NCBI GenBank assembly: GCA_018303505.1
Contig: JAGVYA010000020.1
Location: 97 to 64,096 of the forward strand
Direction of reading: 5' to 3'
DNA: 64,000 nucleotides
Source of the DNA: Candidatus Woesearchaeota archaeon
GTDB taxonomy: Archaea; Nanobdellota; Nanobdellia; Woesearchaeales; GW2011-AR4
The stretch's first letter is position 1. Each line of letters starts with the position of its first letter. This document shows positions 869-34,336 of the stretch, piece by piece. The notes under the pieces were generated by a model. That model saw only the letters and a list, made by a program, of their open reading frames with translations, was not told the DNA's origin and searched no databases. A program made the position numbers and the translations under genes.

Positions 869-1032
869 GGCGGCAAGGGAGAATCGAACTCCCGCCAAGC
901 GGGTACTGCATTCGGGACTGTGAGCTGGTGAGCGAGTTTCTCGCGAACCTCGCATGTCACTGTCCCGCAAGGTGTCAACGGACTTTGCCGTTGTTCCACA
1001 GCCGCCTATTCTGCCATTAAACTATTGCCACC
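869..1032 (-). tRNA. tRNA-His(GUG) with 92-nt intron at canonical 37/38
   Basis: Cloverleaf by eye. G-1 plus acceptor GTGGCAA/TTGCCGC with discriminator C. D arm GTTT-AATGGCA-GAAT. Anticodon stem GGCGG/CCGCT, anticodon GTG at 997-999. T arm GGGAG-TTCGATT-CTCCC. Intron about 904..995 has bulge GGA, 4-bp helix CTGT/GCAG, bulge TAC. CCA not encoded. Confidence 0.75.
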
Positions 1033-1398: not shown

Positions 1399-1890
1399 AT
1401 GACTGAACCAGAGCAATCAAAGCAAGAACTAAAATATTTTGTAAGAATTGCGAACACAGACCTAGATGGAAATAAGCCTATTCAGCATGCTTTGATAAAG
1501 ATAAAGGGCATAAGCTTCATGTTTTCTAATGCTGTGTTGAATGTTGCGGATATTGAAAAAACCAAAAAGGCAGGCTACCTGGAGGATAATGAAGCAGCTA
1601 AAATTGATGAGGTTATAAAGGATCCTTCAAAGTTTGGAATTCCATCTTGGCTTTTCAACAGAAAAAGTGACCCTGAAGACAATACAAACAGGCACTTGAC
1701 AGGCCCGATTTTGACTTTCACCCAAGATAATGACATAAAAATGATGAAGAAGATAAAGTCATACAAAGGAATAAGGCACTCATTGGGGCTGCCTGTAAGG
1801 GGCCAAAGAACAAAATCAAACTTCAGGAAAAACAAAGGAAAGGTTATGGGAGTCAAGAAAAAAGAAGGCTCAAAAGCAGGAAGGGTATAA
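1399..1890 (+). CDS. rps13: 30S ribosomal protein uS13
   Basis: YFVRIANTDLDGNKPIQHALIKIKGI N-terminus and basic C-tail; position in the archaeal uS13-uS4-uS11-RpoD cluster. Confidence 0.95.
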   Translation: MTEPEQSKQELKYFVRIANTDLDGNKPIQHALIKIKGISFMFSNAVLNVADIEKTKKAGYLEDNEAAKIDEVIKDPSKFGIPSWLFNRKSDPEDNTNRHLTGPILTFTQDNDIKMMKKIKSYKGIRHSLGLPVRGQRTKSNFRKNKGKVMGVKKKEGSKAGRV

Positions 1891-1892
1891 TG

Positions 1893-2025
1893 CCGCAAAT
1901 CACTGAGATGCGAGTGAGCAGTGAATTTGCGAAAGCTCGACCTGCTTGCGAGAACGCGAGCTCGCGTTCAACTCTTTCGCTCGCTTATGTCACAGCGAAC
2001 TCGCTCACAATTGTCTGATTCGCGG
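1893..2025. repeat. nested GC-rich palindromic repeat in the rps13-rps4 spacer
   Basis: Outer arms ccgcaaatcactgagatgcgagtgagc / gcgaactcgctcacaattgtctgattcgcgg match the hairpin elements at 32551-32675 and 14691-14750. The 75-nt interior (1920-1994) matches the core at 22381-22445. Confidence 0.7.
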
Positions 2026-2055
2026 ACATTTCCAAAATCAGGAGATTTTTGAAAA

Positions 2056-2580
2056 ATGGGAGACCAAAAAAAACAAAGAAAGAAATTTACAACTCCAAGT
2101 CATCCGTGGCAGAAGGAAAGAATAGCTGCGGAAAAAGAAGTATTAAAGCAGTATGGCTTGCGAAGGAAATACGAAGTATGGAAAATGGATTCGATGCTTA
2201 AAAAATTTCTCCACAGGGCAAAAACAATTATCGGGGAAAGAACACAGCAGTCAGAGCTGGAAAAGAAGCAGTTATTGGACAGGCTCTATTTATTGGGTTT
2301 GCTAAAAAAAGACTCAAAGGTTGAAGATATCTTAAATCTTACATTAAAAAATATTCTGGAGAGAAGATTGCAGACATTGATATGCAGGAGACAAATGGCA
2401 AAAACTATGCTTCAGGCAAGGCAATTCATCACGCATGAGCATATAGCGGTTGGCAGCAAAAAAATAACAAATCCATCGTACCTTGTTTCAATTGAAGAAG
2501 AGCCTCAGATTAAACTGGTTCGTGCTATGCAATTAATAGATAATACAAAAGAGCAAAAAGCAGAAAAGGTAAACCAATAA
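2056..2580 (+). CDS. rps4: 30S ribosomal protein uS4
   Basis: [39 protein letters not shown] and an S4 RNA-binding region; cluster context. Confidence 0.95.
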
Positions 2581-2584
2581 TAAA

Positions 2585-2983
2585 ATGGAGCAGCGCCAAT
2601 CAAGATGGGGAATTGCGCATATTTATGCGTCATACAACAACACAATAATCCATATAACAGATATAACAGGAACTGAAACACTGGCTGTTGGAAGTGGCGG
2701 CATGGTTGTTAAGAGCGACAGAATGGAAGGCTCTCCAACTGCTGCAATGATTGCTGCAAAAAAAGCTGCTGAAATTGCAATGGACAAGGGCATAACTGGA
2801 ATTCATGTTAAGATAAAAGCTCCAGGCGGCCATAACGGACCGACTAGCCCTGGCCCAGGAGCGCAGGCTGCAATAAGGTCATTGTCAAGAATGGGGCTGA
2901 AGATTGGAATCATAGAGGAAGTAACGCCTTTGCCGCATGACGGCTGCAGAAAAAAAGGCGGCAAACGAGGAAGAAGGGTTTGA
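2585..2983 (+). CDS. rps11: 30S ribosomal protein uS11
   Basis: [27 protein letters not shown]...[11 protein letters not shown]; cluster context. Confidence 0.95.
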
Positions 2984-4868: not shown

Positions 4869-5354
4869 ATGATAATCGACGCTAAAGACGCAATTTTAGG
4901 AAGGCTAAGCAGCTATGTTGCAAAGCAGGTTTTGCTAGGCAGCAAAGTAGATGTTATAAACTGCGAGGAATGTAGGCTAAGCAGCTATGTTGCAAAGCAG
5001 GTTTTGCTAGGCAGCAAAGTAGATGTTATAAACTGCGAGGAATGTGTTATTAGCGGAAGAAAACATGCAATATTAAATGAGTACATAAGAAGGCTTCATA
5101 GAAAGGCTCCAACAAAAGCTCCTTATTTCTACAGAAGGCCTGACATGCTTGTCAAAAGAACAATAAGGGGCATGATTCCATTCAAAAGAGCGAGAGGCAG
5201 GGACGCTTTCAAAAATGTAAAATGCTATATTGGCGTTCCTGAAAATTTAAAGAACGAAAAGGCTTTGACTGTTGGAAGCGCAGGGGTTGAGAAGCTGCAC
5301 TCTGCAGATTATTTAAAAGTCAAGGACGTATGCAAAGCAGTAGGCACAAAATGA
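4869..5354 (+). CDS. rpl13: 50S ribosomal protein uL13 carrying an in-frame 24-aa duplication
   Basis: MIIDAKDAILGRLSSYVAKQVLLGSKVDVINCEEC then RLSSYVAKQVLLGSKVDVINCEEC repeated, then VISGRKH...; uL13 N-terminal pattern. Confidence 0.9.
   Translation: MIIDAKDAILGRLSSYVAKQVLLGSKVDVINCEECRLSSYVAKQVLLGSKVDVINCEECVISGRKHAILNEYIRRLHRKAPTKAPYFYRRPDMLVKRTIRGMIPFKRARGRDAFKNVKCYIGVPENLKNEKALTVGSAGVEKLHSADYLKVKDVCKAVGTK
4902..5045 (+). repeat. perfect tandem duplication 2 x 72 nt inside rpl13
   Basis: Unit aggctaagcagctatgttgcaaagcaggttttgctaggcagcaaagtagatgttataaactgcgaggaatgt at 4902-4973 and 4974-5045. Confidence 0.95.
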
Positions 5355-14469: not shown

Positions 14470-14750
14470 CAAAAACCACCCATCATAGATGGGTGGCATG
14501 AAGCGGAAGCTTAATTATAGGCTTGAATTGATGGTGGTTTTTGAGCATCTCAAAAATGTCCTACATTTTTGATGATCATCGGAAATCTTTTGATTTCCGA
14601 GATGCTCGAGAATATACCATCTTGTACAAGCACATCTGACTTACGTCCATTAGTCATATGTCGGTAAATGCTTTGCATTTCCGAGCACACTCGAAAATCT
14701 GTCGAATGTGAGCGAGTTCGCGAGCTCACTCGCATCTCACTGATTTTTGA
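14470..14750. repeat. array of GC-rich hairpins (same superfamily as 32551-32675)
   Basis: CCACCCATC-ATA-GATGGGTGG, CAAAAACCACC...GGTGGTTTTTG, TCGGAAATC-TTTT-GATTTCCGA and CGGTAAATGC-TTT-GCATTTCCG. Long hairpin at 14691-14750 with a GTGAGCGAG..CTCACTCGC core. Confidence 0.7.
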
Positions 14751-14775
14751 TGGACTAATGGTATATTTTCGACAT

Positions 14776-22313: not shown

Positions 22314-22342
22314 TTTGAAAATTATTGACTAAAAACAAAATT

Positions 22343-22457
22343 TTATCTGCCTTCGGTAAATTTTTGGCTCGCCAGTGAGATGCGAAAGCTCGACCTGCAT
22401 GCGAGAACGCTCGCATGCTCGCGTTCATCTATTTCGCTCGCTTAGCTACCTGCTCGC
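22343..22457. repeat. GC-rich repeat copy, inverted orientation
   Basis: tatctgccttcggtaaattttt resembles the reverse complement of the tttgccgaaggcggattgaa end. Core gatgcgaaagctcgacctgcatgcgagaacgc..gctcgcgttca..tttcgctcgctta matches 1930-1990. Confidence 0.65.
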
Positions 22458-23576
22458 CTATTTATTGTTTAATATTCTTACCAATTGGTTTATTTGGATA
22501 TTGCTCCTGATACCTTCTCCCTTAAAATGAGTATTGCTAACCTGATACCTTGATTTCTTAATTTTATTCATAATTTTTTCTTTTTTTTGCAAATTTTTAA
22601 TTTTATTTCTTTCACAAATGTCATGCAGGTCATAAAATCCAATAGCATGTATTTTTGATTCTTCTTTAATTGTTTGCAGAAATTTAATTAGTTGTTTATT
22701 ACTATTAAAAATTTTATTTTTAAATGCGTTTTTATGTATTTTATCAACTAAATTTTTATCCCATAAATTCCCAAGCCACATTGGCCCTGCATCATTAAGC
22801 ATTCCGTGCAATTTCAATGCTTCATCAACCTTATTCTTTCCTTTTATATTTTTTAAAAAAACCCTCATGTAATGCTCTTTAGAATAAGAATATATTGGAG
22901 TAAGCGCTTTGTCATACTGTGCGGCAATTAGCTGTATTTTTCTTATCAAAATTCTTAATCCACTTTCATGCATTATTGCATCCTTCTTAGGCATTGCCCA
23001 GTATTTCCTGATGCATGCCTTTGGAAATGTGCCGCATAATGCAGATGTGTCGGTAGCTGTAACTGCAAGTATGCCGTCTCTTGCCAATCTTTTGCATGCG
23101 CTGTCCAGAAATGCTCCGGGATAACCAAACGGGTCAATGTCAATGTAATCAAAGCCTGTGGAATTAAGCAGAAACAGATTTGCATCTTCATTACTTAAAA
23201 ATACTTTATTTTTAAGTTCCACCGAAACAAAGTTTCTGTAGGGTGCAATTAAAATTTTTTCATTATTTGTATATTGAATCTTATTTAATGCTAAATTTTG
23301 TTTTATCAATTTCGTTGAATCATTACTATAGTCATTAATATATATTTTTTTTATTTTATTTTTTCTTAGTTCTTTCAAAAATCTAATGCTTCTTACACCA
23401 GTCGCTGCCAATGGGTCTGCTATCTGCAGATTATTCTTATTTATAGAATTTAACAACAAAACAGAAATGTCTCTATTTAAGCGCATTGCAGGATTGTAGA
23501 AAACCCCCATTTCTTTTGATACCTTATCTGCTTTTGGTACTTTCAGTTTGATTGAGCCTTCTGTAATAATCCTCAT
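22458..23576 (-). CDS. trm1: tRNA (guanine26-N2)-dimethyltransferase
   Basis: FYNPAMRLNRDISVLLL, DPLAATGVRSIRF, IDIDPFGYPGAFLDSA. Confidence 0.9.
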   Translation of the reverse strand: MRIITEGSIKLKVPKADKVSKEMGVFYNPAMRLNRDISVLLLNSINKNNLQIADPLAATGVRSIRFLKELRKNKIKKIYINDYSNDSTKLIKQNLALNKIQYTNNEKILIAPYRNFVSVELKNKVFLSNEDANLFLLNSTGFDYIDIDPFGYPGAFLDSACKRLARDGILAVTATDTSALCGTFPKACIRKYWAMPKKDAIMHESGLRILIRKIQLIAAQYDKALTPIYSYSKEHYMRVFLKNIKGKNKVDEALKLHGMLNDAGPMWLGNLWDKNLVDKIHKNAFKNKIFNSNKQLIKFLQTIKEESKIHAIGFYDLHDICERNKIKNLQKKEKIMNKIKKSRYQVSNTHFKGEGIRSNIQINQLVRILNNK

Positions 23577-32550: not shown

Positions 32551-32675
32551 CGAAAATCTATGATTTTCGGAGTGTTCGGAAATGCGAAGCATTTGCCGAC
32601 ATTTGGGAATGCTCGGAAATCTGTGAAATGCGAGTGAGCTAGTTGCGAACTCGCTCACATTCGACTGATTTCCGA
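32551..32675. repeat. array of three GC-rich hairpins
   Basis: CGAAAATC-TAT-GATTTTCG and CGGAAATGC-GAA-GCATTTGCCG. Long hairpin TCGGAAATC..gcgagtgagc tagtt gcgaactcgctcac..GATTTCCGA. Confidence 0.7.
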
Positions 32676-33973: not shown

Positions 33974-34319
33974 GGGAGGACTCTGCCGGGAAGCTAGCAC
34001 TCTCCTGTCAGCGCAAACGTGCTTTAGGCGCGGTGAAGCTCTTGAAGCAGCTTGAGTCTTTGCATTTAGTCTTGCTGCTGGCGTAGAAGCTCTGCCTTAT
34101 AGGGCTTGTGCTTTTGAAAATCCGTAAGGTCTGGAAAGAAATCAACTGCGAAATCAGTTGACACTTTGTGGGACATAAAGTCCCACGTGCTCACTACGTT
34201 CGCAAAATTGACTTAAAGCAGCGGTAATCTTGAGCATTGGTGCTTATGAGTAACAGAGTGGAGTCGGTAACAAGGTAGCTGATTGCAATAACTTTTGCCC
34301 ATTCTTGAGCATGTCCTCC
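33974..34319 (+). ncRNA. unclassified structured RNA candidate (SRP RNA or RNase P RNA are the leading guesses)
   Basis: GC-enriched non-coding island in AT-rich DNA. GGAGGAC (33975-81) pairs with GTCCTCC (34313-19). Long-range helix 34050-63 with 34202-19. Hairpins CAACTG-CGAAAT-CAGTTG and GTGGGAC-ATAAA-GTCCCAC. AGGTCT-GGAA-AGA and CCTGTCA motifs. G-U pairs favour the plus strand. Confidence 0.5.
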
Positions 34320-34336
34320 TACTTAATTTTGATGAA

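Follow-up and report, generated by a model that had tools for sequence, protein, structure and literature searches.

Introduction

Short palindromic repeats have been described in several unrelated settings. Rickettsia palindromic elements (RPE), of about 100-150 bp, populate a small AT-rich genome, where they lie in frame within protein and RNA genes and are tolerated; recursive nesting of one such element in the tip of another is not known among them. In the mitochondria of fungi, which are eukaryote organelles, mobile GC clusters or double-hairpin elements are found in spacers, in introns and occasionally in genes. They leave characteristic short target duplications, and we know of no enzyme that has been assigned to them.

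The REP, BIME and REPIN sequences of Proteobacteria are described together with RAYT (Y1) transposases (PMC2817692, PMC3333891, PMC3116915), and REP hairpins are in turn targeted by insertion sequences such as IS1397, ISKpn1, ISPpu9 and ISPpu10 (PMC1525189, PMC12288879). In a census of prokaryotic MITEs, a Woesearchaea genome was among the archaeal genomes richest in conserved MITEs (PMC11602168).

Here we analyse the spacer between the ribosomal protein genes rps13 and rps4 of a Woesearchaeota archaeon, which probably consists of mobile DNA palindromes, non-coding and non-autonomous, stacked one within another. The window is the whole stretch of 64,000 nt of one contig that was analysed. Its source genome (G000) is a 1.3-Mb metagenome assembly in 77 contigs, with 35% GC and 88% completeness, and its ORFs were called with a simple ORF heuristic.

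Results

Four palindromes nested in the rps13-rps4 spacer

An initial annotation of the window had read the spacer as a two-level nest, in which outer arms (1893-1919 and 1995-2025) matched the hairpin at 32607-32675, with only TAGTT as its loop, and enclosed an inner segment (1920-1994) found again elsewhere. Both matches were confirmed, with a third copy of the arms on the minus strand at about 14691-14750 and a second copy of the inner segment at about 22375-22451 (blastn, 86% identity over 64 nt), and the element does adjoin rps13, the hairpin beginning at the third base past the TAA stop. The count of levels was mistaken: the nest consists of four concentric layers, H, A, B and C, the former outer arms being H plus A and the inner segment B plus C (Table 1).

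All of the sequence between the stems of H is inserted exactly at the dyad centre of H. This AT-rich H module is made of two hairpins, and A occupies the centre of the first. The B consensus folds into a 7-bp inner stem (GCGAAAG/CTTTCGC) and an outer stem, while the core of C is a perfect 18-nt palindrome, GAACGCGAGCTCGCGTTC (1952-1969). When folded, the spacer is a single long rod, with a predicted energy for the plus strand of -55.7 kcal/mol as RNA and -35.0 as DNA, and the opposite strand folds equally well; a 151-nt fold of the region has z = -2.7. The only candidate for a target duplication at this site is a 4-nt AATG repeat (1889-1892 and 2055-2058), too short to count.

The repeats fall below the word sizes with which assemblers usually work, and the source is a metagenome; the nest might thus be an artefact of short repeats mis-threaded by the assembler. 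We find this hardly credible, because the flanking S13 and S4 genes are syntenic, other samples, assembled independently, contain stacks of a similar kind, and all four layers are symmetric and complete in the sequence.

Table 1. Coordinates of the nested spacer, its flanking genes and the comparator copies in the window.
Feature	Positions	Strand	Details
rps13 (S13) CDS	1399-1890	+	ORF list; Pfam Ribosomal_S13, E 1.8e-33; stop TAA 1888-1890
rps13-rps4 spacer, 165 nt	1891-2055	.	Lineage-specific insertion; spacer comparison across 30 genomes
Layer 1, AT-rich host hairpin H	1893-2025	.	Stems CCGCAAATCA (1893-1902) and TGATTCGCGG (2016-2025); one mismatch
Layer 2, GC-rich palindrome A	1903-2015	+	At dyad of H
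Left arm of A	1903-1919		CTGAG-ATGCGAGTGAGC
Right arm of A	1995-2015		GC-GAACTCGCTCAC-AATTGTC
Layer 3, element B	1920-1994	+	In tip of A
Left arm of B	1920-1939		AGTGAATTTGCGAAAGCTCG
Right arm of B	1974-1994		CTTTCGCTCGCTTA-TGTCACA
Layer 4, element C	1940-1973	+	In tip of B
Second small AT-rich H-type hairpin	2032-2051	+	CAAAATC-AGGA-GATTTTTG; sequence, fold
rps4 (S4) CDS	2056-2580	+	ORF list; Pfam S4 domain
S11 CDS	2585-2983		ORF list, domain assignment; after rps4
Comparator, H + A without guests	32613-32675	+	H stem TCGGAAATCT / TGATTTCCGA; A at 32623-32665 (43 nt), apex TAGTTGC
Comparator, H holding a 40-nt A	14691-14750	-	A at 14701-14740, apex TCGC
Comparator, second B(C) stack	22375-22451	+	C at 22393-22431

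The layers recur elsewhere in the window far more often than expected: ATGCGAGTGAGC is present three times against 0.02 expected, and GCGAAAGCTCGACCTGC, from the inner segment, twice against 0.03. The minus-strand copy of H and A sits in a 299-nt hairpin array (14476-14774) that is missing from relatives and has imperfect 9-bp flanking direct repeats (TGTCAAAAA/TATGAAAAA). The second B(C) stack occupies the central slot of a 144-nt MITE (22324-22467), which also has imperfect 9-bp flanking direct repeats (TTGAAAATT / TTTAATATT) and is not present in G017, one of the two nearest relatives. Both blocks are ordinary MITE-type insertions that serve as hosts for the GC hairpins.

Other repeats lie near the ribosomal protein genes. 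At 1318-1373, between a promoter-like AACCTTTTTAAATG (about 1218-1231) and the start of rps13, there is a copy of a repeat family of the form GGCGAG...GCCGAAGGC(G/A)GATTGAA with about 20 copies in the genome; this copy is probably in the 5' leader of the rps13 operon. Farther downstream, a perfect 72-nt tandem duplication (4902-5045), equal to 24 codons and in frame, lies within the ORF at 4869-5354 in the ribosomal-protein gene cluster.

The layers belong to one dispersed superfamily

A, B, B2 and C, the GC-rich units, constitute a single superfamily whose members have their ends in common, with the motif GT-S-R-N ATGCGA at the left and TCGCTNA NNT-S-AC at the right. The 1.3-Mb source genome carries about 91 GC-hairpin islands, most of them intergenic, and each of the three GC-rich layers of the spacer is also present alone, in about 22 (A), 8 (B) and 10 (C) solo copies; eight B copies have just 1-2 nt between their arms.

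The best defined unit is A, a near-perfect hairpin when folded. Its exact 31-nt core was found on 42 contigs from more than 25 other Woesearchaeota/Nanoarchaeota assemblies, from groundwater, marine and other sites, in a search that demanded the exact core and is therefore uninformative on sequence constraint. In an alignment of the 42 exact-core copies, conservation extends beyond the core by 5 nt on its left and 7 nt on its right, which defines a 43-nt element with sharp ends and unrelated flanks. The left end reads GTGAC, GTCGA or GTGAG and the right end AANTCAC, so that terminal inverted repeats are present (GTGA...TCAC, plus an imperfect inverted repeat some 19 nt long). Between species the tip of A is hypervariable, with TCGTTGC, GAAGT and TTCGTTCTAAGC among its versions. 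Within the genus, exact A arms are present in 30 of 43 genomes, which, being related, are not independent samples in this or any other genus-wide count.

Combinations of layers are dispersed as well. The B(C) junction of the spacer recurs at 22393 and in another genome (G051), and the B2(C) junction recurs in G013 (four copies), G034 and G005, often inside an A of opposite orientation. Stacks spread as units, and given these recurring junctions the rps13-rps4 stack may have arrived partly pre-assembled. B and B2, which share the same C junction, differ by a compensatory stem change (GCGAAAG/CTTTCGC versus GCGAGAG/CTCTCGC), from which it follows that the stem matters for propagation.

A recent insertion at a repeatedly invaded junction

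S13 and S4 were found in 30 genomes from the genus and the order, and the spacers between them were compared. The 165 nt of the source genome contrast with 3 nt in G017 and 1 nt in G013, the two nearest relatives, whose rps4 products are 93% and 91% identical to that of G000, respectively; in most of the 30 genomes the spacer is 19 nt or shorter (0-19). The stack is therefore a recent insertion. Other hairpin arrays of the window are likewise missing from relatives, among them, in G013, the one around 32613-32675.

The proposal that mobile repeats had been inserted here is thus upheld, since the layers occur solo in the genome and the nearest relatives have a spacer of only 1-3 nt. Relatives do not carry the composite as a single conserved unit, and its inner and outer parts are separable. 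The related suggestion that one family member had landed in the loop of another survives in part: the nested mobile repeats are real, but the landing need not have happened between rps13 and rps4, because ready-made stacks spread.

Four other genomes carry unrelated hairpin-bearing inserts at the same S13-S4 junction, of 114 nt (G001, locus L011), 120 nt (G003, L006), 66 nt (G019, L019) and 57 nt (G027, L025). As these inserts are independent, the junction has been invaded repeatedly. The four-deep stack, together with the empty sites of sister species, offers a clean before-and-after record of such invasions.

Preference for hairpin tips

The flanks of unique A copies were inspected for pairing, with flanks exchanged between A copies as the control. 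Among 56 unique copies, 24 are enclosed by a perfect flank stem of 6 bp or more; in the shuffled flank pairs the share averaged 7% and never exceeded 15%. Roughly half of the A copies lack an obvious host stem; several adjoin the T-arm of tRNA genes. Because the host stems differ in sequence, the target appears to be a structure; integration would thus seek out unpaired hairpin tips whatever their sequence.

Filled and empty versions of the same kind of tip support this reading. Unoccupied H-type hairpins are frequent in the genome, for example CGAAAATC-tat-GATTTTCG and TCGGAAATC-tttt-GATTTCCGA; the latter, which also exists with caaa at the tip, compares with the filled paralogue at 32613-32675. 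Similarly, the hairpin GGGAC-ATAAA-GTCCC is empty in an insert of the SRP RNA gene and occupied (GGGAC...GTCCC) in the intron of tRNA-His. Nested guests replace the few tip bases of their host. No direct target duplication is visible at the GC hairpins, and what remains of the host after removal of A is a palindrome, perfect or nearly so; because the junctions can be placed only to within 1-2 nt, a duplication of that size is possible.

No microhomology rule was found at the junctions. Filled and empty alleles of one site were not seen within one population, and a metagenome scan for strain variants with the 3' end of rps13 gave no match. Gene 3' ends are not preferred, with 3 of 91 islands in convergent gaps; among the 60 islands that lie cleanly in tandem, divergent or convergent gaps, this is 5%, against 12% of the intergenic length.

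Copies in tRNA and SRP RNA genes

We detected 7 tRNA genes in the source genome with ARAGORN and 15 with the Rfam tRNA model. Most of them carry inserts of 15-105 nt (e.g. C7:4735-4894, C35:8963-9157 and C66:54883-55083), and the intron of the tRNA-Met(CAT) gene on contig C7 holds an A in reverse orientation. In six other Woesearchaeota assemblies (L058, L062, L065, L082, L090 and L092), tRNA genes have an A directly after the hairpin of the variable arm and before the T-arm (..GGTTCAAATCC), where it may be spliced out or may be tolerated as an enlargement of the variable arm; the tRNA at L090 reads as a class II tRNA-Ser.

The SRP RNA gene of the window (33974-34320) scores 77 bits against its Rfam model, below the gathering score of 96.5, and carries an 85-nt insert. 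The insert (..CAGTTGACACTTTGTGGGAC-ATAAA-GTCCCAC..) resembles the tRNA-His intron (..CCGTTGACACCTTGCGGGAC..GTCCC..), with a compensatory change in the first hairpin, and could represent an SRP RNA intron that belongs to the same family. The ORF that follows tRNA-His has no Pfam match.

These occurrences raise the alternative that the layers are intron-like RNA elements, cut out by the archaeal splicing endonuclease as tRNA introns are. Family members do lie in tRNA introns, those of tRNA-His (window 869-1031) and tRNA-Met (C7:4735-4894), in a genome whose tRNA genes are mostly interrupted. The boundaries of the layers, however, form no bulge-helix-bulge motif (a 4-bp helix between two bulges of 3 nt each). 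Inspected by eye and in folds, they have unpaired stretches of 2-3 nt against 6-7 nt, unstaggered, within a rod that has small asymmetric internal loops. A hand check of the element/exon ends at tRNA T-arms likewise found them without the required pairing. Inside tRNA genes the elements sit at a hairpin tip within a larger intron, and the reading frame stays open through the copies found in coding regions, which speaks against splicing being required. With no motif at the boundaries and the elements lying inside larger introns, we reject the bulge-helix-bulge intron, and consider the intron-like reading as a whole very improbable.

The stack within the operon

Orientation relative to transcription is unbiased, both in tandem gaps (13 copies in the same and 17 in the opposite direction) and inside genes (4 and 4). 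At least six copies lie within long ORFs, and the element leaves the frame open in both orientations (..SNASE.. versus ..VSEF..LTRI..). In the source genome, long ORFs with an in-frame A or A(B2) are found at C66:53340-54830, C17:24683-26230, C3:2470-3756 and C75:1684-2391; one in-frame copy lies at the N-terminus of a 497-aa ORF.

We searched the spacer for Rfam families and for a hairpin-plus-T-run terminator, and found neither. A K-turn or C/D-box reading of GUGA...CUGA was also considered and rejected on inspection, as there are no tandem G-A pairs after a 3-nt bulge. Given the lack of orientation bias, the open frames and the absence of a bulge-helix-bulge, an Rfam match or a terminator, we favour the view that the elements are palindromes at the DNA level, carried passively into transcripts.

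The last 40 nt before rps4 contain no archaeal TATA-like motif, hence rps4 would have to be read from the operon transcript. An AGGAG word (2040-2044), 11 nt before the ATG of rps4, matches the anti-Shine-Dalgarno end of the 16S rRNA, whose 3' end is GGATCACCTCC, and is a putative ribosome-binding site of rps4. With this word in place, rps4 should still be translatable from a read-through transcript. The junction inserts of G001, G019 and G027 likewise end with GGAG-like words.

It might be argued that the stack is instead a functional RNA of the rps13-rps4 transcript, acting in processing, stability or translational control and perhaps separating the expression of S13 from that of S4. Its predicted fold is indeed very stable (-52 to -56 kcal/mol), AGGAG lies in the loop of the last small hairpin ahead of rps4, and hairpin inserts are found at the same junction in G001, G003, G019 and G027. 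Yet the stack is missing from the nearest relatives, it consists entirely of dispersed repeats with no orientation bias to transcription, it has no Rfam match or terminator-like site, and both strands fold equally well, as expected for DNA palindromes. We therefore hold a functional RNA to be improbable. That close relatives lack the whole stack points to selfish mobile DNA tolerated by the operon and not to a regulatory device. The initial annotation had proposed that the element must be "tolerated, or used" in the polycistronic mRNA; passive tolerance is supported by our analysis, while nothing that we found shows a use.

How the elements might move

Profile searches of the source genome (88% complete) detected no Y1 transposase (PF01797), TnpB or Cas1, and there are no multicopy ORFs in it. 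The recombination genes that it does have are one DDE_Tnp_1 locus, with unrelated surroundings and ends, and three tyrosine recombinases, none of them linked to the elements. IS110-type genes are present in 6 of 43 genus genomes but not in G000, and a scan of viral contigs for A found none.

The likeliest mechanism, which we put forward tentatively, is a transfer between tips. A single strand folded as a hairpin would be moved into the tip that another hairpin exposes on single-stranded or cruciform DNA, in a way akin to the "peel and paste" of IS200/IS605 and REP-RAYT systems, by an enzyme that would act in trans and whose gene would lie outside this assembly. As the inserted element is itself a hairpin, it would offer a new tip, and Russian-doll stacks would be the outcome.

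A more specific version is that these are archaeal counterparts of REP/REPIN or IS200/IS605-derived palindromes moved by a Y1 (HUH) transposase of the population. Hairpins without visible target duplication, inserted into single-strand-like tips, are what such an enzyme would be expected to leave; Y1_Tnp genes are present in 23 of 43 genus genomes, in up to 9 copies, and in an assembly of 88% completeness the gene may have been missed, since insertion sequences often fail to assemble. Nevertheless, no Y1 gene was found in G000, G001, G005, G034 or G017, the latter four of which carry 5-13 exact A copies, with 13 in the well-assembled G001. Y1 and A counts are uncorrelated across the genus (Spearman rho 0.04), the three Y1 loci that we inspected have their own unrelated end hairpins with no A, B or C nearby, and the GTAG/CGTC head by which REP super-families are defined (PMC3733652) is missing from the elements. 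We thus judge movement by a Y1 transposase to be rather unlikely. The best Y1 match of the genus (L106, G011:C156) is on a short contig whose long overlapping ORFs translate as arginine/glycine-rich sequences, unlike those of the AT-rich genus genomes; this contig may be a binning contaminant.

Alternatively, no dedicated transposase may be involved. Palindrome tips would be cut by host nucleases or would stall replication, and another abundant hairpin would be ligated or copied into the break by template switching or filler capture. The replacement of loop bases without duplication, the hypervariable A tip across species and the lack of an enzyme candidate agree with this scheme. Random capture, however, does not predict guest ends that are sharp and conserved across many species, and no microhomology rule was found at the junctions; we regard host repair as unlikely. 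To a similar degree we doubt that the elements represent a new mobile class which joins a folded single-stranded hairpin into an opened tip by structure alone. Integration of that kind would rely on a housekeeping enzyme of the host or an undescribed one, and a transposase of a known family would not be needed. Tip transfer by an enzyme acting in trans stays our preferred, if tentative, mechanism.

Discussion

Although the genomes of DPANN archaea are very small, this lineage harbours a previously undescribed superfamily, made up of tiny palindromes that invade hairpin tips in the spacers of essential operons, in tRNA introns and in coding regions. The system provides a way to seek a structure-targeted integration activity in archaea. 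It may also account in part for the unusual gene structures seen in these genomes, among them long tRNA introns and additional peptide segments, and it carries a warning for annotation: GC-rich islands of this kind should not be read as regulatory RNAs.

Like RPE, these palindromic repeats are tolerated in frame within protein genes, a likeness of behaviour and not of homology, as a relation in sequence is neither expected nor seen. With the fungal mitochondrial GC clusters they have in common that GC-rich palindromes are scattered through a very AT-rich genome, again with no shared sequence.

The insertion sequences IS1397, ISKpn1, ISPpu9 and ISPpu10 are similar in their choice of site, in that there too a mobile element lands inside a palindromic repeat and the hairpin is the integration target. 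Their guests, however, are full insertion sequences that encode a transposase, whereas here the guests are gene-less palindromes of 34-43 nt. The elements are MITE-like in being non-autonomous repeats with inverted ends. They differ from DDE MITEs in that the GC hairpins have neither a target duplication nor a partner insertion sequence and choose hairpin tips. PATE-like palindromic repeats derived from IS200/IS605 insert in a strand-specific way 3' of a set tetra- or pentanucleotide and leave no duplication. The lack of duplication here would fit such an origin; what the flanks have in common is a structure and not a sequence word.

In overall form the elements resemble REP sequences. Both are short, GC-rich, imperfect palindromes in tens to hundreds of copies, mostly intergenic, arranged in mosaic clusters, conserved across species and without ordinary target duplications. 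The archaeal elements depart from REP in lacking a conserved GTAG/CGTC tetranucleotide end (PMC3733652), although one B2 sub-variant begins with GGTAG, and from REP-RAYT systems in that G000 has no RAYT gene and the genus shows no link between Y1 genes and element load. They are nested concentrically in each other's tips and not placed side by side, copies are also found in coding regions and tRNA introns, and their host is an archaeon. We found no published description of such elements in the literature, and conclude that A, B, B2 and C represent a genuine and so far undescribed variant of the REP/MITE-like palindromic elements.
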